A DNA stretch of 33,177 nt from Candidatus Thorarchaeota archaeon (GTDB taxonomy: Archaea; Asgardarchaeota; Thorarchaeia; Thorarchaeales; Thorarchaeaceae): assembly GCA_048882325.1 (NCBI GenBank), contig JBHLRS010000031.1:1-33177 (forward strand). The letters run 5' to 3'. Positions 13,207 to 25,142 of the stretch are shown one piece after another. The notes beneath the pieces were generated by a model. It made no database searches, had not been told where the DNA came from, and saw nothing but the letters and a program-made list of their open reading frames with translations. Both the position numbers and the translations under genes were made by a program. The first letter of the stretch is position 1; the number at the start of each line of letters is the position of its first letter.

Positions 13207-14322
13207 TTGAAGACTGAAATAATCCAAATAATGGCAGGAGCCGCCATGATCTCCGCTTTCACATATGTTCCAATTCTCGCGAGCGAGCTTGGTATCTCCG
13301 AACTTCTCGTAACTGTCATAGTTGGAGGATATGCCACTGCTTCGTTCTTTTCTTCATACATATTTGGAAGGGCTGGGGACATCTACGGTCGAAGGATTGT
13401 CATCCGGCTAGGTCTATTGGTATCTATGGTCACATTTGGTCTACTACTATTTACGACAAACCTTGAAAACCTGTTTCTTGTCCGGGTGCTAAATGGTTTC
13501 TGTGTTGGAATATACCCAGGCGCTCTAGCTGCTTTTGCATATGAATCAAAGATGAAGATGGGGCGGTATGCTACCTGGGGGGCTGCTGGGTGGGGCGTTG
13601 GAACACTCTTTGCAGGATACGCTGCCACTTTCAATGTGTACTATGCCTTCCTAATGTCAACGATATTCTTTGCCATAGCCTTTGCGTCAGCCCTGACCTT
13701 ACCCTTGTTAACACAGGAGGTTGTAAAGGTCCCTTGGTTCCCAATTGAAACCTTCAAGCGAAATGCTCCAATCTACATAGCATTCTTTCTCAGACACAGC
13801 AGTGCCTTTGCCATCTGGACACTGTGGCCATTGTTCCTAGTCAGTATCGGTGGGGACAATTTCACAATTGCCATAGTTCAGTCTACTAATGCTCTTGCTC
13901 AAGTATTATTCATGGCGACTGTAGTCGATCGGATTGAGAGCAAGCGATTGGTTTCCATTGGATTGGTCACATCAGCAATCACATTCTTCTGGTTTCCGTT
14001 TGCCCATAACATCATTGAAATCATCCCAACACAGATTTTACTGGGCTTTACGTGGGCAACTCTATACGTGGGTGCGTTGAAGTATGTGACCGAAAACAAC
14101 AATGAGCGATCAACTGCATCAGGACTTCTAACATCTACGATGTCACTTTCGGGAGTTGTTGGACCAATTCTTGCCGCAGCGATATATCTGATCTGGCCGG
14201 GCTATGTGCCTACTATGATATACGCTGGAGTTATGTCGCTCATCGCTTATGGATTGTTCTGGCTTACTAATCGTAATGACGGGGTAGCTATGATTGATGA
14301 AGAACTCATTAAGGTTGTCTAG
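13207..14322 (+). CDS. Major facilitator superfamily transporter
   Basis: Motif A GRAGDIYGRR; about 12 TM segments. Confidence 0.93.
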   Translation: MKTEIIQIMAGAAMISAFTYVPILASELGISELLVTVIVGGYATASFFSSYIFGRAGDIYGRRIVIRLGLLVSMVTFGLLLFTTNLENLFLVRVLNGFCVGIYPGALAAFAYESKMKMGRYATWGAAGWGVGTLFAGYAATFNVYYAFLMSTIFFAIAFASALTLPLLTQEVVKVPWFPIETFKRNAPIYIAFFLRHSSAFAIWTLWPLFLVSIGGDNFTIAIVQSTNALAQVLFMATVVDRIESKRLVSIGLVTSAITFFWFPFAHNIIEIIPTQILLGFTWATLYVGALKYVTENNNERSTASGLLTSTMSLSGVVGPILAAAIYLIWPGYVPTMIYAGVMSLIAYGLFWLTNRNDGVAMIDEELIKVV

Positions 14323-15484
14323 CGCGACGCTTCTTCAGGTCCTCTAGTTTCTTTCCAAAATCCACCTCTGTCAACCTATTTGTAATGATTGGTGAGATGA
14401 TGAGGAAAAGGACAGCAAAGACACCGATGACGCTCAGGTCTACTAACAGAGAATCATAGGTACCTTCCACGAACATTCTGATTAGTGACCTATAGACATT
14501 GGACACTGGCAAATATTCATCAAAGGTTCCGAATGTCGCTCCGACAAGACTCAAAGGTGCTATTCCACCCCCTACAATCCAGTAGAATATGGCTCCAAGA
14601 GCAGCTACTGGAACAACGAATACTGAATTCCTGAAGACAGCTCCAGCAATTATTCCAAACCCTGAGCTGAATAGAGCTAGTAGGAATGTGAGAGAGAAGA
14701 ATGTAAGGACATCTCCATCAGGCCAGACGCGAAACAGGATGAAACTAAGGAGGAAAAGAAACGGGACCGCTGCATAACTGATCACAACCCCACTGAACAT
14801 CTTTCCCATGTAGATGGCGTGAGGTGATTGATTTGAGAGAATTAGTTCATCCATAGTTTCTTGTTCGAACTCTTGGGTCATTGCCGATCCAGCTGCAAAA
14901 ATGGCTCCAAACATCACTGAGTAGATAGATACCGTCCATGCCATGTACGCTAATCGCGGAGGAGTGAATGGTCTCAAATCTACCGTTTCAAAATCAACAA
15001 GTGAGTCGTTCAGGAAGTAAGTCTGGTAGAAGATATCCAGCTTTCTAATCACTGGCATCCGCAGGTTCTTTGTGAGATCTTCATGTATGTTAGCCACTTG
15101 AACATGAATTGATATTGACTCGTTATTGGTCACTGCATTCTCAAATCCATCTGGTATTGTGATGACGAGAAGAATCTCACCATTCTGGAAGAGGTGGTTC
15201 GCAGTTTCTGCGTCCATCAAGATTGGATCGAGTCGGGGAGGGATTGGGTCGTTCTCACCCAAAATCTCGAGTAGTCCTTCTGTGTAAACACCAGGATTCT
15301 GCTCATTAAATACAACCGCAGTTTCAACCCCACTCCCGAAGTATACACCACCCATGAGCATGCTGAATCCAACGAAGAACATGAGAGGTAGGAGAACTAC
15401 CAGTACAAGCTTCTGTGGGTTTCGCTTCCATACTCTGAGCTCTTTGATAAAACTGGTCTTGACAACTCTGAATGAGAGGTTCAC
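14309..15484 (-). CDS. ABC-2 type exporter permease
   Basis: KELRVWKRNP, extracellular loop with ITIPDGF, QEFEQETMDEL..S, YMGK. Confidence 0.92.
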   Translation of the reverse strand: MNLSFRVVKTSFIKELRVWKRNPQKLVLVVLLPLMFFVGFSMLMGGVYFGSGVETAVVFNEQNPGVYTEGLLEILGENDPIPPRLDPILMDAETANHLFQNGEILLVITIPDGFENAVTNNESISIHVQVANIHEDLTKNLRMPVIRKLDIFYQTYFLNDSLVDFETVDLRPFTPPRLAYMAWTVSIYSVMFGAIFAAGSAMTQEFEQETMDELILSNQSPHAIYMGKMFSGVVISYAAVPFLFLLSFILFRVWPDGDVLTFFSLTFLLALFSSGFGIIAGAVFRNSVFVVPVAALGAIFYWIVGGGIAPLSLVGATFGTFDEYLPVSNVYRSLIRMFVEGTYDSLLVDLSVIGVFAVLFLIISPIITNRLTEVDFGKKLEDLKKRRARQP

Positions 15485-16614
15485 GACTGTTCAACCTCCT
15501 TCTTCATCAGTTGCATGACCACGGTAGTCATCACTATCCATGTTCCCAGTAGGTACAGGACACCTGTCATGAGACCCAATACAGTGTCAAGGAAGAAAAC
15601 ACGGGACCACAATGATAGGGAATGCGTAGTAGGAAGAATCAGCATAATCATCCGGATTGAAAAAGGAGACAGACCTACAGGAGCCATTCCTCCTCCCAAA
15701 ATGAATCCTGCTACCGTGAGAAGGACAGCGGCCAACAGGGACTGTTCCCTATTTCGTATCTTCATTCCAATCAGTTCACCGATTGGTACCAATGCGAGAA
15801 TTGTGAGGAGAAGTATGCTGACTAAAATCAGAACATTGCCAACCGGTAATACATTCATACTGATACAGATGACAGGAGCGGCAAGCAGCACCGAGGAGAA
15901 TGATCTGGGAATTGCAGCTATTGTTCTACCAATGACCAGTGCAATCCTTGGCGTTGGAGAATTCAGGGTATCTTGTAGAGCCCCTGTTTCAAACTCAGTG
16001 GCGGTCAGCATGGCTTGACTTGCCAGCGAGCAGGCTATGAGTGAGAGAAGGATTGCTACTGCAGCCATGTACTCGAGGTTTGATGGTGTTGCATCAAGAC
16101 TAAAGGACTCCTCAAGTGCTATAGGAGCGCCGGACTGGTCAAAATCAGGATAGACTGCTCCTTGGTTGAACAAGAGGACCGCGACCTCAAAACGATGGAC
16201 ATAGTTCTTGACAACATCGTCGTTCACATTGTTGATATACATCACAGCTGTCGCGTTTTGACCGGACGTGATGTTGTTCCCAAATCCTTCTGGAATCAGT
16301 ATGTATGCAATCAGTTCCCCGTTTCTATACAATTCCTCTGCAGTTTCAAGATCATAACGCTCAATACTAAACCATGTGTGATTAGTGGTAGAAACCATGT
16401 TATCAAGAATATTGGCCATGTCATCTGCTTCTGGAGACATATCTTCAACAACAAGACCACATGCAAAGGACTCGCCTCCTCCGACTGATGTCCACATGAT
16501 TGCATAGACAAGGAGGAAGACAAAAGGGATGATTAGACTGGGACCTAGAAACTTGGGGTCTCGTTTAGCCTGTTTCAGGTCTTTCTTCACTATGGCGACA
16601 ATGGCACGGAACAT
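15481..16614 (-). CDS. ABC-2 type exporter permease
   Basis: KKDLKQAKRDP, LIPEGF, TEFETGAL...LNSP...LVIGR; overlaps the next gene by GTGA. Confidence 0.92.
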   Translation of the reverse strand: MFRAIVAIVKKDLKQAKRDPKFLGPSLIIPFVFLLVYAIMWTSVGGGESFACGLVVEDMSPEADDMANILDNMVSTTNHTWFSIERYDLETAEELYRNGELIAYILIPEGFGNNITSGQNATAVMYINNVNDDVVKNYVHRFEVAVLLFNQGAVYPDFDQSGAPIALEESFSLDATPSNLEYMAAVAILLSLIACSLASQAMLTATEFETGALQDTLNSPTPRIALVIGRTIAAIPRSFSSVLLAAPVICISMNVLPVGNVLILVSILLLTILALVPIGELIGMKIRNREQSLLAAVLLTVAGFILGGGMAPVGLSPFSIRMIMLILPTTHSLSLWSRVFFLDTVLGLMTGVLYLLGTWIVMTTVVMQLMKKEVEQS

Positions 16615-16615
16615 G

Positions 16616-17569
16616 TCAATCCCTCAGAGTTGAGCCAGTGATTGTGAGAAACACATCACCAAGGGAGGGCTCTCTCATTGATGCCTGTTTCACCGCAAGG
16701 CCAGCTTCAGTAAGTCGACTAATGACCAGGGGTAAATCAGAGTGACCAGCCTGACTTCGGATCCATGCTGTGCGTGGACCTCCATTGAGTGGGTCCGAAA
16801 CCTTCTCCACGTTTAACTTTAACCTCTCTGTTAGCCACTCAGGACCGGATGAAGACTCCATGCCATCAATAAGCACCTCAATCAGGTATTCTCCAACATA
16901 TTTACGCTTTAGGTCACTAGGAGTACCAGAAGCAACCAGAGCTCCATTATCAATCACAATCACACGGTCAGCAAGTGCTTCAGCTTCATCCATATAATTT
17001 GTACAGAAGATGATAGTACGTCCCTCGTCTTTCAACTTCCGTACCTGGTTCCAGATCAGGTTCCTACTTTGAACATCGACACCTAACGACATTTCATCCA
17101 GAATCAGAAGTTCTGAATCATGGAGTATCGAGCGAACAAGGGCGAGTCGACGCTTCATCCCTCCGGAATATGTTTTCACCAGGTCATCCTTGCGATGAGT
17201 GAGACCCGCCAATTCGAGCATCTTCAAAATACGCTCATTCACCTCTTCTTTAGGTACACCGTAGAGCTCAGCATGATACTCGAGGGCTTCATAAGCAGTC
17301 AAGTCCTGATAGAGAGCAGTTTCCTGTGGCATGAACCCTATGAGCTTGCGAATAGAGTCAAGATTCGCAGTCACCTCAAGTCCAGATACCCTTACACTTC
17401 CAGATGTGGGCTTTAGAATTCCAGTAATCAGCTTTACAGTGGTGGACTTTCCAGCCCCATTGGGACCCAAGAGACCTATGATTTCACCCTTCTCAACCGA
17501 GAACGAGAGTTCTTGGAGTGCTTTGTGACTACCCTTGTAGATATGAGTAAGATTTGATACTTCAACCAT
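16616..17569 (-). CDS. ABC exporter ATP-binding subunit (DrrA/NodI-like); start near 17569-17578 rather than 17629
   Basis: GPNGAGKS, YSGGMKRR, LILDE, C-terminal REPSLGDVFL; AGGTGA SD at about 17584-17589. Confidence 0.94.
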   Translation of the reverse strand: MVEVSNLTHIYKGSHKALQELSFSVEKGEIIGLLGPNGAGKSTTVKLITGILKPTSGSVRVSGLEVTANLDSIRKLIGFMPQETALYQDLTAYEALEYHAELYGVPKEEVNERILKMLELAGLTHRKDDLVKTYSGGMKRRLALVRSILHDSELLILDEMSLGVDVQSRNLIWNQVRKLKDEGRTIIFCTNYMDEAEALADRVIVIDNGALVASGTPSDLKRKYVGEYLIEVLIDGMESSSGPEWLTERLKLNVEKVSDPLNGGPRTAWIRSQAGHSDLPLVISRLTEAGLAVKQASMREPSLGDVFLTITGSTLRD

Positions 17570-17623
17570 CAAGGTCAGATGAATCACCTGATTACGTAAG
17601 GACCTCAGGACATATGGGTGTAG

Positions 17624-17642
17624 TGTCACGAATGGAGTAACA
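17624..17642. promoter_or_regulatory. Putative operator TGTCAC-N7-GTAACA in the divergent ABC/wHTH promoter region
   Basis: Near-perfect palindrome with the same spacing as the copy upstream of trmB. Confidence 0.6.
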
Positions 17643-18861: not shown

Positions 18862-18940
18862 GTCAACATATCCTACCGCTTTTAAAAATCCATTTCGATT
18901 CATATTTTAGTCAAATCAAGTGCCTAGAAATTGGAGTAGG

Positions 18941-19756
18941 ATGATTGTGAATAAACCTCATCTTGTTGCTTTAAAATGCCCACAGTGCGGAAAGAAACTC
19001 GTCTTCAATGGAAGTTTCGATCCATCCGAGGATGTGAGAGATGGAGAGATTGTTTGCCAGAAGGGACATGTCTGGCCCATTACTAATGGTATCCCTTCGC
19101 TTGTCTATCCCCCAATATCCGAAGAAGACGCAAAGTGGATCAAAGATTATGATGAGATGGCGGAGAATTATGATGAGCTTGTCAAACAGTATGATGAGTG
19201 GCTAGGAATTGACATGATGAAAGAGCGTGAGAATTTCCACGCCATCATTCCCATCGAAGGACCTCTGAGTATAATTGATGTCAGTGTTGGTACAGGTGCG
19301 AACTTCATGGCCTTATACAACACACACAAAGACCAGATGGGTAGGTTCAATCTTCATGGGTTAGATCTGTCTACAGGTATGCTCAAGGTGGCTAGTGGAA
19401 AGTTCACCCAAAGTGGTCTTTCAGTCAGTCTTACACATGGCAGTGTGTTCAACATCCCATACCAGAGAAACCTCTTTGACATCGTTATTCACTCTGGAGG
19501 CCTCAACACATTTTCAGACATCCCAGGAGCATTGAAGGAGCTGCTGCGGATTGCAAAACCCAACGGTCAGATTATAGTGGTGGATGAGGGACTATCCCCT
19601 CAAAAGAGGAAAACCGAGGAAGGAGAAGCCATCATGAAAGCAAACACACTGTTTGCAATCAAACCCCCTTTAGAGCACATCCCTGACGAAGCAAGGGATG
19701 TAGAAGTCACCTATGTTATGAATGAAACCTTCTATCAAATCGTCTTCAGGAAATAG
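18941..19756 (+). CDS. Trm112-like Zn-ribbon fused to a class I SAM methyltransferase
   Basis: CPQC...GEIVCQKGHVWPITNGIPSL followed by DVSVGTG, GLDLSTGML, FDIVIH, LRIAKPNG. Confidence 0.88.
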   Translation: MIVNKPHLVALKCPQCGKKLVFNGSFDPSEDVRDGEIVCQKGHVWPITNGIPSLVYPPISEEDAKWIKDYDEMAENYDELVKQYDEWLGIDMMKERENFHAIIPIEGPLSIIDVSVGTGANFMALYNTHKDQMGRFNLHGLDLSTGMLKVASGKFTQSGLSVSLTHGSVFNIPYQRNLFDIVIHSGGLNTFSDIPGALKELLRIAKPNGQIIVVDEGLSPQKRKTEEGEAIMKANTLFAIKPPLEHIPDEARDVEVTYVMNETFYQIVFRK

Positions 19757-19807: not shown

Positions 19808-19848
19808 AAAAAGAATGGATGTGCTCAAGTGGCTTCCCACAGGAGCAC
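19808..19848 (-). terminator. Hairpin plus U-tract closing the small-peptide operon
   Basis: Minus strand GUGCUC-CU-GUGG-GAAG-CCAC-UU-GAGCAC followed by AUCCAUUCUUUUU. Confidence 0.6.
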
Positions 19849-19941
19849 CTCTTCAACTGTAACATCACGCTGCTTAGAAGCGCTCTCTGATTGGCTTTTA
19901 TCCCTTCGCTCAAAGTCGAGGGTCTTACTGTGGTAGTACAT
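19825..19941 (-). CDS. Possible small peptide 3 (38 aa) MYYHSKTLDFERRDKSQSESASKQRDVTVEEVLLWEAT
   Basis: ATG 6 nt after the peptide 2 stop, with AGGT upstream, the same coupling geometry as peptide 2; lacks the shared motif and overlaps the terminator hairpin. Confidence 0.4.
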   Translation of the reverse strand: MYYHSKTLDFERRDKSQSESASKQRDVTVEEVLLWEAT

Positions 19942-19947
19942 TGTAAT

Positions 19948-20037
19948 CTACCTGTACATGTAAGAGTGAGTTATAGCATCAGTTGAGATCTTCGGCCTGG
20001 GCGTGAATTTCCTCTTCTGTGTCTTTGCAAGTGCCAT
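19948..20037 (-). CDS. Small peptide 2 (29 aa) MALAKTQKRKFTPRPKISTDAITHSYMYR
   Basis: GGAGGT SD 8 nt before the ATG; C-terminus similar to peptide 1, with synonymous codon differences. Confidence 0.72.
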   Translation of the reverse strand: MALAKTQKRKFTPRPKISTDAITHSYMYR

Positions 20038-20043
20038 GATACT

Positions 20044-20151
20044 TTACCTCCGATAGGCGTATGCGTACCCGATAGCGTCAGTTGTGTAAACCTTCGCAAT
20101 CTTGTTGTCCAACTTCTCTCTCTTGTCGTTAGTTAGTTTCATGCGATACAT
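20044..20151 (-). CDS. Small peptide 1 (35 aa) MYRMKLTNDKREKLDNKIAKVYTTDAIGYAYAYRR
   Basis: First ORF after a BRE/TATA; GTGA just upstream; shares the TDAIxxxYxYR motif. Confidence 0.72.
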   Translation of the reverse strand: MYRMKLTNDKREKLDNKIAKVYTTDAIGYAYAYRR

Positions 20152-20184
20152 TGTTTATCACAACATATGACACACCAAATTTGC

Positions 20185-20198
20185 ATATAAGGTTTGCG
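20185..20198 (-). promoter_or_regulatory. BRE/TATA promoter of the small-peptide operon
   Basis: Minus strand CGCAAACC-TTATAT, about 34 nt upstream of ATG 20151. Confidence 0.65.
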
Positions 20199-20479
20199 TC
20201 ACCAACCATTTCTGTTTTTGTTGTTGATTGATTACACTATTTATATTGAAATAGGTTGAAAATATGTAAAATACAAACTCTTCAATATTGAATGGTTCGC
20301 CATCACCAGCAAACTTAAATAATTAGTTTGTCCAGAATATCATAGAATGGGGGCGTTAAAACACGCTCTTGGCGAGTTTAAAATAAAAACCCGCGAACAA
20401 ATTCCAGAACGAACGATTCCCGGGCCATCCGAGTCGCTTGAAGAATCGACGGATCGAAAATGCATTGGTGAACACAAAC

Positions 20480-21235
20480 ATGGGTGACGATAACATCACA
20501 ACGGAAATCACGGACAGCCTTGAGGGAATTGTCTTAACGAAAGAGGGTAAAGAGCCTCAGAAAGAGATCGTATTTGTAACAAATCAAGAGGCCGCTGATG
20601 TTCTAGACGAACTGGTTAGATACAACATATTGCAAGTCCTACGAAAGGGTATAGAGGACACATTGACCACAAAGACTGTGGATAAGGAAACTGGAGACAC
20701 TATAATACGACAAAAGGTTGTTGTCCGAGATGTGCTTTCAGTAGTGGAGATGGTCAAACTCTCGCCACAGTGTTGCATCGAGGGTGAAGAAATCACCAAG
20801 AATCAAGTGTATCACCACCTTCCAAAGCTAATCGAATATGGCTATGTCATAAAGTATGGTACTGTGACCAAAGGAAAACGAAGTACTGACTACTACAGAA
20901 GAACAGCCAAGGGATTCATGCTGACCACAGGAACTTGGGGCACTGAAGAGAAAAGGGTGAGAGAGAAACTGGAAGGTTTCACAGACAAGATGCTCGAAAC
21001 ATTCAATCTGGATTTATCCAAGGAACAGCGCGAAGAGCTCGTTGAGCTGAGTGTCAAAAGAGCACAGATGCAATATGAGTGGAGGACCAAGATAGCTGAA
21101 ATGGTCAACCTGGACATTGCCACTAAAGAAACCCTCTCAATGTACGAGATGATGTTGGACTACTACTCTGTTGGTTCAAAGGAGTACATGGACACCATTT
21201 ATCGAATACGTGAGATTCTCTTCCCTGAGAAATAA
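20480..21235 (+). CDS. ArsR/HTH_20-like winged-helix regulator with an inserted loop and helical C-terminal domain (start ATG 20480)
   Basis: RYNILQVL...LSVVEM...ITKNQVYHHLPKLIEYGYV...DYYRRTAK; GGTGA SD at 20467-20471. Confidence 0.82.
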   Translation: MGDDNITTEITDSLEGIVLTKEGKEPQKEIVFVTNQEAADVLDELVRYNILQVLRKGIEDTLTTKTVDKETGDTIIRQKVVVRDVLSVVEMVKLSPQCCIEGEEITKNQVYHHLPKLIEYGYVIKYGTVTKGKRSTDYYRRTAKGFMLTTGTWGTEEKRVREKLEGFTDKMLETFNLDLSKEQREELVELSVKRAQMQYEWRTKIAEMVNLDIATKETLSMYEMMLDYYSVGSKEYMDTIYRIREILFPEK

Positions 21236-21243
21236 TAAGTCAT

Positions 21244-21618
21244 CTAGATATGTCCACGCAGTTGGATTGCTGTCTTTTTGACATCAATGAGTGCGAGTTC
21301 AGGTACTGCTGATGGTGCAGCAAATGCAATAGCCCAGCTATTCTCGTCAATTAGTACTAGGATGAGATGACCCATGTTATCATCTGCGGTTGCAATATAT
21401 GAGTCATCAGAAGAGAACACTCGTTTGTAGGTCACCCCTCCACAGGTCAGATTTGACGAGTCCTTGTCGGCTGCCTTGAGGATTGTTTCTATGTCCTCCA
21501 CAAGATTCCAATTATCTGTCTGCCAGACAACTGTACCACTTGTAGCAACTGCAAATGCATGAATCTTCGGATTGTTGGAAAAGAGAATATTCCATTCATG
21601 TCCTATCACTAGTGCCAA
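21244..21618 (-). CDS. Profilin-like protein 2 (divergent; probable TTG start at 21618, 124 aa)
   Basis: IHAFAV...VVWQTDNWNL...GVTYK...SYIAT...GHLILV...WAIAFA...DVKKTA..LRGHI aligns with the neighbouring profilin; GGGGGT SD 7 nt upstream. Confidence 0.8.
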   Translation of the reverse strand: MALVIGHEWNILFSNNPKIHAFAVATSGTVVWQTDNWNLVEDIETILKAADKDSSNLTCGGVTYKRVFSSDDSYIATADDNMGHLILVLIDENSWAIAFAAPSAVPELALIDVKKTAIQLRGHI

Positions 21619-21652
21619 ACCAAAGACCCCCACATTTACTGTGATGTGTATG

Positions 21653-21678
21653 AGGGGAGAACTTTGAAGTTTTCCCCT
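21653..21678. terminator. 11-bp stem-loop between the two profilin genes
   Basis: AGGGGAGAACT-TTGA-AGTTTTCCCCT. Confidence 0.6.
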
Positions 21679-21701
21679 AATGCTCACATGATCAGAAAAT
21701 A

Positions 21702-22088
21702 CTAGATTTTGCCTCGTAGGGTCTTTGCGGCTCTGTCTACATCAACGTAGACACCATCTGGCTGTGCCTGAGCGTCAGCCCATGCTACAACCCATCTGTC
21801 ACTAGCAGCATCGACCTTAGTAAGAATCAGAATTCCATTGCCCTGCACATTGCGGGCAACCAAGCTCTCAGGAGTAGAGCGCATTGTTGAATACTTCACT
21901 TGATTCTGGACAACACTGGCTGCACGAGACTTCACTGCAGACATCAAGTTTGCAGCATCGGCTGTCAAGTCCCAATTATTACTCTGCCAGAGAACTTGTC
22001 CGGACTCTGAGATCACACCAAAGGCTTGGACCATATTTCCTGAACTATTGTATGCTTGCGTATATGCATCCATTACTGGATCGCTCAT
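21702..22088 (-). CDS. Asgard (Thor-type) profilin
   Basis: 128 aa: VQAFGVISESGQVLWQSNNWDL...QVKYSTMRSTPESLVARNVQGNGILIL matches the Asgard profilin pattern (WQxxNW, xKY, LVAxNxxGxG); GGGGTGA SD. Confidence 0.9.
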   Translation of the reverse strand: MSDPVMDAYTQAYNSSGNMVQAFGVISESGQVLWQSNNWDLTADAANLMSAVKSRAASVVQNQVKYSTMRSTPESLVARNVQGNGILILTKVDAASDRWVVAWADAQAQPDGVYVDVDRAAKTLRGKI

Positions 22089-22592: not shown

Positions 22593-25142
22593 GTGTTGAG
22601 AATAGACCGAACCACATTCCTTAGCATCACTTACGCTGTCGGTCTTACTCTTGTCACATTGGCAATACTTTCTGGTCGATTTACCCACCCGGATGTCCTA
22701 ATCACACTTGGGGTGGAATTATTCCTGCTCTATATCTCAGTGTTTAAACCCCCTCTCAAGAGAAATGAAATCATTGCAATGGTTCTCTTTGCAACAGCAT
22801 ACTACCCACTTAGTGTGATATTTGGCATATTCTCGGACATGGTAGTGGTTACTGTTGGAGGAGTAGCTATATACGTGGCAATGACAGTTAGAGTCGAGCT
22901 ACATCCGACAAAAGCCTTGCTCGCAGGTCTATTCTCAGCAGGAATCTTCTTTGCATTATATCTGATGGTCCAGAGAGGAGTGGCCCAACCAGATGTAGTG
23001 ATGGCTTTAGTCATACATACAATGCTGCTGTACATGTCTCTCAGCAAACGTCCACCGGACAAGACTGAGTTAGCTGCAATTAGTGCGCTAATCTTTACAT
23101 GTTTGGCCCTCAGTGTAACGTTTGGATTTCTCTCGTTTGTTGTCATTTGGTCACTTGGAAGTCTCACATTCTATGGACTCATCAGAGCAGAACCTAAGTT
23201 CCCCTTGACTAAACGAGCAATGGGCACTGGTCTGATTGTTGGAGTAGTAATGACATTCATGGGCATCTATCTCGCTCTAAAGATTGGTATCGTTTTTCTT
23301 GTGGGAGCTGAGATGTTGGGTGCTATTTTCCTCGGGATGAGGGGAGGATACACCCGAGAAGAGAACGCGATTGCAGTTACTATATCGAACACTTCATCCA
23401 TGGTGGCAATTGGTGTTCTACTCACATATCCTGCAATAGCAATCTTCGATTCAGGAGATCCCATTACAGGAAATCCTCTCTTTAACACCAATCACATAGC
23501 CTATGACCCAGTAATGACTCTCCTCTTCATAATGTTCACTACCGGCATCAGCGCGGTATTTGGAATTGTGCTCCTAGCGCCATTCAGAAAACGATTCGAG
23601 CATGAACCCTGGCCTCGTGTACAACCCCAGGTGGAGTGCATTAACTCCATTGGAAGTGATGCAGAATCCAAAAAAGCCGTGGGAATTGGATTGGCAGCAT
23701 CCGGAGCATGGGTCGGAGCAACAAAGATAGCTGAGAGTGTTTCCAGGATTTCATTGAGTACACTGCCCTATGCTCTAACACCTGTAGCTCCTGCAGTGGC
23801 TGCAATTCCGGACTGGATTGGTATCAGCAACTCGCCGATGATTGCGGGTATAGGATTCTTTGTTGGATGGAAACGATCACTTGTTATGCTCTTAGGAAGC
23901 ATAATCTCAATGGTAATCTGGATTGTCTTGGAGGGCGCTGATGGGAGTATACTCTATACTGCACACCTGAAACGACCGGAGATTTTGTATCTTGTTCTCG
24001 GAGTTTTTGTTACTGTAATCTTAGCGGATATGATGGGAACAAGAGGGGAGAGGAATCTGACACCTGATGAAGTGCAAGAGAAGATGACCCCTAAAGATGA
24101 GGACTCCGTAATTGTTGAAAATCCTCACAAAACTGATGAATTATCTACGATTCTGAGGGTCAAGCAGGAATTGTTCTCCATAGAGGCCTTCAAGGAGGAC
24201 GTTAGGCAGATTGTGGAAAATCCGAGGGAGTTTTTGAGGTCGAGGAGAGGAAAGGTCCCAGTCTGGATCGCATTTGTGTCAATGGGACTCTTCATTATTG
24301 TGGGACTTGTAGTATTCTGGTTCATTGCACCATTCATCGAAGCTGGATCAAGACCTCTTCGAATTCACTGGCTCTTGATCATCTTAGGTACTCCCTTGTC
24401 GCTTGTTTCTGCGTACTTTACAGCAAGGGCAATCAGTGAAACAGGAATGCTTGCAGGATATATCTCTGACATAATAGCAATTCCAGCGATTCTTTTCTTT
24501 CGAGTGACGTTTGCTGCCATAACCACATTCATGGGCATGCTTGGGGCGATTCAGGATGCGGCTATAGCATTACTGGTCCATCTCAAACTTGGTTCGTTGA
24601 CAGGTGTTCGTGGGAGAGACATACTGAAAGCGGTATTCATCGGAACCGTGTTAGGCACGACTGTTGGTTCGCTAATAACGTTCGAAATATTCAGCACTTA
24701 CGGTTTCGGGACTGTTGAGTTTCCGAGTCCAGCTGCGCAGCTCTTCGGATTCCTTGTACAAAGTCTTCAGGGAATAGGTGAGATGCAACTACCTGGCCTC
24801 CCTGAGTTTTCTATACTTGGTTTTCTCTATCTCTTGTCCTGGGGAGTTGCTGGATTCCTGACCGGGAGGGAGCTGAATAAGAGAGGATTGAGTCCAATCA
24901 GTCTCGTTGTTGGTGTCCTCATCCCACCAGCCACTTCTGTCACGATTCTGATTGGCGGATATATCAGTTATAGAGCAAAACAGATTCAAGAACCAGCGCC
25001 TCTCACAGATCATTTGCCACAACAAGTCGAAGTCTGTGATGCAGGGTATAGCAGGACAAGCAGAATTCTTAGTGGTATAGTAGCAGGTGAGGCAGTTGTG
25101 ACTGTGATATGGGTTCTATTGAGTGTATTCCTCTTTATCTAG
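22593..25142 (+). CDS. OPT/YSL family oligopeptide transporter with an extra duplicated N-terminal membrane module
   Basis: OPT core starts at LTKRAMGTGLIVG...YLALKIG, with EEN, FPSPAAQ and SGIVAGEA; aa 1-207 form a 2 x 100-aa repeat. Confidence 0.87.
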   Translation: MLRIDRTTFLSITYAVGLTLVTLAILSGRFTHPDVLITLGVELFLLYISVFKPPLKRNEIIAMVLFATAYYPLSVIFGIFSDMVVVTVGGVAIYVAMTVRVELHPTKALLAGLFSAGIFFALYLMVQRGVAQPDVVMALVIHTMLLYMSLSKRPPDKTELAAISALIFTCLALSVTFGFLSFVVIWSLGSLTFYGLIRAEPKFPLTKRAMGTGLIVGVVMTFMGIYLALKIGIVFLVGAEMLGAIFLGMRGGYTREENAIAVTISNTSSMVAIGVLLTYPAIAIFDSGDPITGNPLFNTNHIAYDPVMTLLFIMFTTGISAVFGIVLLAPFRKRFEHEPWPRVQPQVECINSIGSDAESKKAVGIGLAASGAWVGATKIAESVSRISLSTLPYALTPVAPAVAAIPDWIGISNSPMIAGIGFFVGWKRSLVMLLGSIISMVIWIVLEGADGSILYTAHLKRPEILYLVLGVFVTVILADMMGTRGERNLTPDEVQEKMTPKDEDSVIVENPHKTDELSTILRVKQELFSIEAFKEDVRQIVENPREFLRSRRGKVPVWIAFVSMGLFIIVGLVVFWFIAPFIEAGSRPLRIHWLLIILGTPLSLVSAYFTARAISETGMLAGYISDIIAIPAILFFRVTFAAITTFMGMLGAIQDAAIALLVHLKLGSLTGVRGRDILKAVFIGTVLGTTVGSLITFEIFSTYGFGTVEFPSPAAQLFGFLVQSLQGIGEMQLPGLPEFSILGFLYLLSWGVAGFLTGRELNKRGLSPISLVVGVLIPPATSVTILIGGYISYRAKQIQEPAPLTDHLPQQVEVCDAGYSRTSRILSGIVAGEAVVTVIWVLLSVFLFI

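Follow-up and report, generated by a model that had tools for sequence, protein, structure and literature searches.

Coupled microprotein genes facing a winged-helix regulator form a predicted multi-copy family restricted to Thorarchaeota

No part of archaeal genomes is less charted than the small proteins. Those described from prokaryotes include microproteins that act in trans, such as the Methanosarcina mazei small proteins that act on glutamine synthetase or GlnK, and MntS, SgrT and AcrZ of Escherichia coli, which act on transporters. To our knowledge, Asgard archaea are not yet open to genetics, and conserved unannotated genes are rare concrete leads to their biology. Short open reading frames (ORFs) are also found as leaders: in bacteria, leader-peptide stalling controls mef(E)/mel, bmrCD and also ermB, which is preceded by two such peptides (PMC4335068, PMC8274638, PMC4191407). 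At the proteasome, the HbYX motif (a hydrophobic residue, tyrosine and any residue) defines activators, and short HbYX peptides suffice for gate opening of the archaeal 20S particle (PMC12352868, PMC10349882). Here, we report a minus-strand unit of three short ORFs, A', B and C, in a 33,177-nucleotide stretch of a Candidatus Thorarchaeota archaeon assembly (GCA_048882325.1; 3.6 Mb, 89 contigs, 93% complete). This whole stretch, from contig JBHLRS010000031.1 (C31), is referred to below as the window.

The unit occupies the 681 bp between two long flanking ORFs, a methyltransferase gene that ends at 19756 and a regulator gene that starts at 20438. The original prediction, made from the sequence of the window, had placed in this gap a minus-strand unit with a promoter element (transcription factor B recognition element, BRE, and TATA box), two peptides, a possible third, and a hairpin with a T-tract. 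The promoter element, both peptides and the hairpin with its T-tract were recovered at the positions that it gave, and the possible third peptide proved to be a real gene, C, that belongs to a second conserved family. The three ORFs are:

20044 to 20151, minus strand: microprotein A', 35 aa, net charge +4.5, ending in TDAIGYAYAYRR
19948 to 20037, minus strand: microprotein B, 29 aa, net charge +5.6, ending in TDAITHSYMYR; a paralogue of A'
19825 to 19941, minus strand: microprotein C, 38 aa, net charge -2.4; second family, ending in EVLxxEAT before the stop codon

Codon-level comparison indicates that A', B and C are translated genes under purifying selection. The window locus was aligned with the orthologous loci of five species of the same genus, giving six loci with flanks identical in kind, and the ratio of nonsynonymous to synonymous substitution rates (dN/dS) was calculated by the NG86 method. 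The first ATG of A' is kept in all six. For the concatenated A+B+C sequence dN/dS lies between 0.11 and 0.45, with dS ranging from 0.27 to saturation; taken singly, A' falls below 1 in most pairs, B gives 0.09-0.41 against the five orthologues, and C gives 0.14-0.51. It is from these low ratios in each of the three that we conclude that they are genes. Substitutions in the conserved C-terminal segments of the six orthologues fall mostly at third codon positions, so that the motifs survive via synonymous changes. Likewise, the synonymous differences that had been read at residues shared by A' and B (GAC/GAT, ATC/ATA, TAT/TAC and CGG/AGG) are present, and the selection at peptide level suggested by them is borne out by dN/dS and by the existence of a family that a profile hidden Markov model (HMM) detects. 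A pattern search and codon-level check on homologues, which had been proposed as the way to examine the unit, returned dN/dS below 1 and open frames of ~30-40 codons with no internal stop in every match listed (about 430 matches at E <= 1e-4 in 70 genomes).

The genome itself holds several paralogues. A six-frame scan of all 3.6 Mb for the C-terminal motif followed by a stop codon returned only four matches, all of them ATG-starting ORFs of ~30 aa; two are those of the window, one is on contig C8 and one on C18. Both of the latter loci again carry a tandem pair, to which the C18 locus adds a third ORF with a C-like C-terminus. The HMM, which A' and B match at E = 1e-11 and 2e-12, respectively, located additional copies on C14 and C27. 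Scan and HMM together thus uphold the idea of paralogous short peptides that share a conserved C-terminal core. A further motif scan revealed a divergent subtype on C28 (14822-15388) and C41 (3621-3803) with the same MAFAK start and the ending TDVYRTSF[HQ]R before the stop codon. In total the genome has about 10-12 members. The C28 copy is followed by a longer ORF (~60-95 aa) that ends in GFMR, and the C28 pair faces a different, 360-aa helix-turn-helix regulator. Small genes arranged opposite a regulator may thus be a design that this genome uses repeatedly.

Across genera, A/B family members are basic peptides of ~27-40 aa that start with MA[LFI][AT][KT], continue through a variable basic middle, and reach a core of the form [ST]-T-x-A-[ILV]-x-x-[AS]-[YF], which is followed by 3-5 residues (3, 4 or 5 in 43, 48 and 21 of 123 distinct tails). 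The last residue before the stop codon is arginine in 112 of the 123, a constancy that is explained in part by the terminal Arg codons doubling as the Shine-Dalgarno sequence of the next ORF. The motif first proposed, TDAIxxxYxYR, does not extend to the family, in which its Asp, His and second Tyr are variable and are freely substituted in other genera. Similarly, the N-terminal halves had been called Lys/Arg-rich and unrelated; they are indeed variable and basic, but they are not fully unrelated, as most members share the MA[LFI][AT][KT] start and the N-terminal half is largely kept among orthologues. C family members end in [LVI]-[TS]-x-x-[ED]-V-L-x-[WLM]-E-[AVP]-T before the stop codon (44 distinct tails from several genera). 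A' and B are basic and C is acidic, and all three are hydrophilic, with a grand average of hydropathy of about -0.9 to -1.1. No hydrophobic segment, cysteine, signal sequence, double glycine or protease site was found in the peptides. AlphaFold2 models A' as one helix spanning residues 5-33 (predicted local distance difference test, pLDDT, 74).

Several readings of the conserved residues were tried and rejected. A transferrin-like Fe(III) site built from the Asp, the His and the two Tyr conflicts with the free substitution of three of these residues in other genera. PIP-box, AT-hook and SPKK-like readings were dropped for misfit in spacing or for residues that are not conserved. Finally, the C-terminal tail of a major facilitator superfamily (MFS) transporter was considered as a bearer of the motif of C, which would make it a common docking site, but an HMM of the C tail ranks this MFS tail 1112th of 5435 ORF tails.

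The family appears to be a multi-copy system restricted to Thorarchaeota that has not been described before. In the 24 genomes of the same genus that were searched first, the A/B HMM gave 8-14 matches per genome (E <= 1), and stricter cut-offs gave 3-14 across all 27 genomes of the genus. Copies occur in 70 of 85 genomes of the same taxonomic family, whereas none of 314 genomes from more than 30 other Asgard families has a match at E <= 1e-4. When ten genomes that were HMM-negative or had a single weak match were inspected, nine still had small ORFs with a like C-terminus facing an orthologue of the regulator, and four of those nine also had a C-like ORF. Therefore, the regulator-facing peptide unit is probably universal in the taxonomic family. 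The original prediction did not recognise the peptides as members of any family, and database searches agree: Pfam has no family for A', B or C at E <= 0.1, nor has NCBIfam at E <= 0.01. The three window peptides have no entry in a collection of 15 billion proteins, searching the ESM Atlas by features yielded no usable match for A' and only sub-threshold matches for C, and full-text searches of the literature brought up no description of the family. A profile search of a library of 1.84 billion proteins returned 56 representatives, almost all of 29-40 aa, plus two spurious repeat proteins, and found no fusion to a larger domain. Relatives carry the name Candidatus Thorarchaeota, including isolate AB_25, and the five relatives of the peptides that we looked up in protein collections are unnamed.

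About eight of the library entries are longer (~70-90 aa) and consist of B and C read as a single protein with TAG as glutamine. One such entry was checked and translates only if TAG is read as Gln, making the apparent fusion an artefact of gene calling. Such ~70-aa products stem from public gene calls on short contigs. In the window, B and C are in the same frame with TAG and two codons between them (19942-19950), and the same holds at five other loci (L006, L013, L018, L019 and L024). Programmed TAG readthrough joining B to C was considered and rejected as unlikely, with fusions that are gene-caller artefacts and B and C in frame at only 8 of 13 loci.

Expression signals surround the three ORFs, and the elements and flanking genes are as follows:

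20191 to 20207, minus strand: imperfect inverted repeat GGTTGG-TGACG-CAAACC, a putative operator overlapping the BRE and abutting the TATA box
20185 to 20198, minus strand: BRE/TATA promoter element, CGCAAACC TTATAT, 34 nt upstream of the A' ATG
20157 to 20161, minus strand: GTGAT, a Shine-Dalgarno-like element before A'; GTGA[AT] is conserved 7-8 nt ahead of the first ATG
19808 to 19848, minus strand: terminator, a hairpin (19848-19821) spanning the end of C, then TTCTTTTT at 19815-19808
20438 to 21235, plus strand: divergent winged-helix regulator (c2) with a PH1932/ArsR-homologue fold; alternative ATG start at 20480
18920 to 19756, plus strand: class I S-adenosylmethionine methyltransferase, convergent, with an N-terminal Trm112-like zinc ribbon; a syntenic neighbour

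The BRE/TATA element proposed at 20198-20185 is real, in that CAAACCTTATAT is invariant in the orthologous loci of all six species. Over it lies the inverted repeat, whose family consensus is GGTTTG-N5-CAAACC; among the six orthologues the arms are kept and the 5-nt spacer is free to vary. Thirteen loci in other genera have the repeat together with an abutting TATA box, and across genera it always stands beside the divergent regulator; of the nine such repeats in the window's own genome, that of the unit is the only one found beside a TATA box. In several other genera (loci L094, L095, L103 and L041), a second GTTTG-N5-CAAAC repeat lies ~40 nt downstream of the TATA box, suggesting a pair of operators; the window copy has no evident second repeat. 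The transcript would be translated by coupling: from A' to B and from B to C the downstream ATG is exactly 6 nt past the preceding stop, and the Shine-Dalgarno sequence of B, GGAGGT, is made by the last codons of A' (CGG AGG TAA). This confirms both the spacing and the embedded Shine-Dalgarno sequences that had been read from the window. The hairpin with its T-run folds at -30.6 kcal/mol (z = -2.8), and the T-run is largely retained in the six-locus alignment. Rfam has no match anywhere in the window.

That the unit is divergent from an ArsR-like regulator was likewise upheld. A profile of c2 matches 1ULY (PH1932) in the PDB at E = 3.4e-9 over residues 103-242, and its AlphaFold2 model (pLDDT 83) finds 2CWE/1ULY in Foldseek at E about 1e-6 with a TMt of 0.62, followed by PadR, VanR and LmrR. 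Profile and Foldseek results agree on the features of the class, namely a winged-helix DNA-binding domain and a C-terminal dimerisation helix bundle. Orthologues of the regulator occur in 76 of 86 genomes of the taxonomic family. At each locus that was inspected the regulator stands opposite a peptide micro-operon, even in HMM-negative genomes. The simplest reading is that the inverted repeat is a repressor site on the BRE/TATA that would be bound by the neighbouring c2.

A different promoter serves other copies of the family. In those of the 'MALTTN' type, a promoter of ~95 nt recurs in nearly the same form within and between species; it consists of a perfect palindrome, AGTCACA-N3-TGTGACT, a third TGTGAC half-site and a TATATATAC box, with the ATG at +87. 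In the window's own genome such A-type loci lie on C8 (~65550), C14 (~25317) and C18 (~39090), and paralogous loci elsewhere that carry this promoter are L003-L032 and L104-L121. All 12 genomes of the genus that were searched contain the exact palindrome, at 1-4 copies each, and none contains the reversed control; an A-type peptide gene lies downstream of nearly every palindrome site that was fetched. Such a shared promoter points to a putative dedicated transcription factor. The GTGA[AT] element before the first ATG, which presumably pairs with the 3' end of 16S rRNA, is common to W-type (window-type) and A-type loci. Degenerate copies of the A-type promoter are found on C5 at ~7437 and ~50322, before a GNAT acetyltransferase gene and the gene for a 369-aa membrane protein, both of which are possible further members of the regulon. 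Ahead of the GNAT gene is a leader of ~150 nt, in which an upstream ORF of 38 codons overlaps the GNAT start. We also considered that the repeated promoter might belong to a mobile element, and rejected this because the loci hold orthologous positions across genera.

The family is found in five recurrent settings:

regulator, A-B-C and methyltransferase (the window type); recurs across genera
PolX, then A-B-C; recurs across genera
superoxide reductase (desulfoferrodoxin), then A-B-C, with GNAT nearby; recurs across genera
A-B-B, then a terminator, next to hemerythrin; recurs across genera
A-B, then an MFS gene after about 5 nt; seen in at least 12 of the loci fetched, with a DHA3-type gene in at least 9

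Proteins of the main MFS cluster are of the MFS_3/TIGR00900 (DHA3) type and related to Mef, Tap and EntS. Several loci close with a B-type ORF, after which come a hairpin and T-run.

Around the window locus, a block of ~20 kb that comprises DUF58, OPT, two profilins, the regulator, the peptides and the methyltransferase is syntenic in six genera. The methyltransferase matches Pfam Methyltransf_11 at 5e-15 and Trm112_arch at 1.5e-5, and a UbiE-like NCBIfam model below cut-off. The profilin-like genes lie in tandem on the minus strand (21244-21687 and 21702-22088), next to the regulator in all six genera; one passes the Pfam Profilin cut-off and the other is its paralogue by clustering. Their presence fits an Asgard origin. 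On one side of the operon (13207-17629) are an MFS_1 transporter and an ABC-2 exporter composed of an ATPase and two permeases, and on the opposite side, at most 3 kb from the peptide genes, is an 849-aa OPT oligopeptide transporter (22593-25142). The OPT gene belongs to the syntenic block, whereas the ABC-2 genes lie outside it.

What the peptides do can be proposed with less confidence than that they exist. We put the probability at about 0.45 that they are trans-acting cytoplasmic microproteins, held under a local repressor and deployed in a setting of stress, detoxification or efflux. According to this proposal, the PH1932/PadR-like winged-helix protein c2 would sit on the conserved inverted repeat at the BRE/TATA and repress the operon until a signal arrives. 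The peptides, once produced, would serve within the cytoplasm as small trans-acting adaptors or modulators. Docking to a partner would go through the conserved C-terminal segments, with specificity tuned by the N-terminal halves, which are variable and basic. The physiological setting would be a stress, detoxification or efflux response. In favor of action in trans are the stand-alone operons that finish in a terminator, the loci in which a B-type ORF comes last, and the orthologous positions that the paralogous loci keep across genera. A cytoplasmic location is suggested by the hydrophilic character of the peptides and their lack of a hydrophobic segment. As for the setting, A-B pairs head operons for DHA3-type MFS efflux pumps, and other copies adjoin superoxide reductase, hemerythrin, PolX and GNAT genes.

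Several points weigh against this proposal. The role in trans is argued by exclusion, and the tight coupling of the peptides to a C or MFS gene downstream, as seen at many loci, is also compatible with a role in cis. The stress-related neighbours are correlations only, and the binding of c2 to the repeat is something that we infer. A helix in the conserved segment is uncertain, given that the tails of B and C have a hydrophobic moment that is greater at beta than at alpha periodicity. Adjacency to the methyltransferase, OPT and profilin genes of the window says little about function, since the whole block is syntenic in six genera, and we have discounted it as a functional link. A prediction of the A+B+C complex made with alignments (score 0.06, mark 0.32) returned no answer and is evidence neither way.

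The alternative that survives best, although we consider it unlikely, is that A and B are cis-acting leader ORFs, with translation or a nascent-chain pause near their C-termini setting reinitiation on C or the MFS gene. The ORFs have the appearance of leaders: they are short, the C-terminal part is conserved and the N-terminus is more variable, stop-to-start gaps are 5-8 nt at A-B-MFS and A-B-C loci with the next Shine-Dalgarno sequence inside the last codons, and arginine directly precedes the stop codon in the great majority of C-termini (112/123). At 12 loci or more the target would be an MFS pump, at 9 or more a Mef-related DHA3 pump, and there are bacterial precedents in mef(E)/mel, ermB and bmrCD (PMC4335068, PMC8274638, PMC4191407). 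However, stand-alone A-B-C and A-B-B operons end in terminators, and a B-type ORF is the last gene in several loci. The distance from core to stop is not fixed, being 3, 4 or 5 residues, the terminal arginine is partly accounted for by the next Shine-Dalgarno sequence, and a ribosome paused at the stop codon would cover the next start and so block the downstream gene rather than induce it. Moreover, the N-terminal halves are conserved among orthologues as well, and two or three tandem paralogues in 5-14 copies per genome with dedicated operators are unlike known leaders.

Less probable still is that the peptides are precursors or final products that are exported or modified, for example as ribosomally synthesised and post-translationally modified peptides (RiPPs), signals or antimicrobials, with the MFS protein as exporter and enzymes encoded elsewhere carrying out the modification. 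Systems of this type typically have precursors that are tandem paralogues, many loci carry an MFS_3/DHA3 transporter immediately after the peptide genes, GNAT and methyltransferase genes are recurrent neighbours, and the window has the OPT oligopeptide transporter and the ABC-2 exporter within 3 kb. The conserved Tyr-containing C-terminal segment is also reminiscent of cofactor-type precursors such as PqqA or MftA. Nevertheless, the flanks of more than 60 loci examined contain no radical-SAM/SPASM, YcaO, lanthionine, ATP-grasp or P450 gene beside the peptides, and in the 93%-complete genome there are only two SPASM genes, on contigs C59 and C19, and no YcaO was found. The peptides have neither a signal peptide nor Cys, double-Gly or a protease site; they are very hydrophilic, and at about 30 aa they are large for an MFS substrate. 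The Asp, His and second Tyr vary, and the OPT/ABC neighbours are ascribed to a generally syntenic block, even though the ABC-2 genes themselves lie outside its conserved part. The RiPP-like precursor, signalling peptide and short-linear-motif effector put forward in the original prediction found no positive evidence; no maturase lies by the loci examined, and the peptides have no signal sequence.

A role of B-type peptides as free HbYX ligands that act on the 20S proteasome is very improbable; in it, Met-Tyr-Arg would enter the alpha-ring pockets in the manner of the PAN tail and either open the gate or compete with PAN. The B peptide of the window does end in Met-Tyr-Arg, that is, hydrophobic-Tyr-any at the extreme C-terminus. 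In the family at large, however, the motif fits only 11 of the 123 distinct C-termini, and the penultimate residue is Tyr in 15. A' ends in Tyr-Arg-Arg, one B orthologue ends in Met-His-Arg and another is two residues longer; the tail past the core varies in length, leaving the position of the carboxylate unfixed, and the conserved residues lie upstream of the would-be motif. Finally, the notion that the ORFs are not genes at all, their conservation reflecting an RNA or DNA element or chance, is for practical purposes refuted by the codon-level evidence, with dN/dS well below 1 at saturated synonymous sites and a third-position bias in the conserved C-terminal segments; the matches listed across 70 genomes are free of stops, and Rfam gave no match. 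What probability remains beyond these readings falls to unforeseen roles.

Going one step beyond trans-acting microproteins, it is conceivable, though doubtful at present, that the A/B/C trio is a Thorarchaeota-specific signalling or effector module of a new kind, in which the three microproteins, once released by their repressor, assemble on a conserved cellular machine or switch it, for example an efflux pump, the ribosome or a regulator. If so, the multi-copy paralogues would give graded or condition-specific outputs, and the module would be a stress switch based on microproteins, of a type not described so far in archaea. Irrespective of mechanism, the family is ancient within Thorarchaeota, multi-copy and tightly regulated, with two operator types, one of which is paired with a PH1932-like regulator, and it is linked time and again to a Mef/EntS-like efflux pump as well as to genes for oxidative stress and repair. 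Standard gene calling misses these genes or mis-fuses them, as when TAG read as Gln joins B to C. The unit lends itself to experiment: peptides of 30 aa are within reach of synthesis, and together with a regulator and an operator of defined sequence they offer a probe of how these organisms detect stress and respond to it.

Like PH1932 (1ULY/2CWE, the Pyrococcus horikoshii ArsR homologue) and the two-domain PadR-type repressors, c2 has a winged helix and a C-terminal helical dimerisation domain, and a palindromic site is found on the promoter of its neighbour; it differs by a beta-rich stretch of about 100 residues added at the N-terminus. The leaders of mef(E)/mel, ermB (ermBL and ermBL2) and bmrCD (bmrB) resemble A/B in being small ORFs just upstream of a DHA3/Mef-like pump, possibly in tandem, with a conserved C-terminal part. 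Those leaders are bacterial and act via attenuator RNA structures, and they are not multi-copy families under purifying selection along their whole length; in addition, many A/B operons have no large downstream gene. The HbYX tails of PAN, Cdc48 and PbaB (PMC12352868, PMC3493965, PMC3605417) share with the window B peptide a hydrophobic-Tyr-X end, but the motif is missing from most family members, including A', and the conserved core lies further upstream.

A further likeness is to the microproteins of M. mazei and E. coli, which are, as A, B and C appear to be, stand-alone translated short ORFs of 30-50 aa with a specific regulator, often beside a transporter and missed by annotation. The Thorarchaeota peptides have no sequence relation to these, and differ from them in having two or three coupled paralogous ORFs per operon, 5-14 copies per genome, a conserved C-terminal core and dedicated palindromic operators. 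The general kind of gene, the regulated microprotein operon, is known; the family is new, and it is unusual in its organisation, which combines coupled paralogous ORFs in twos and threes with many copies and two dedicated types of operator.

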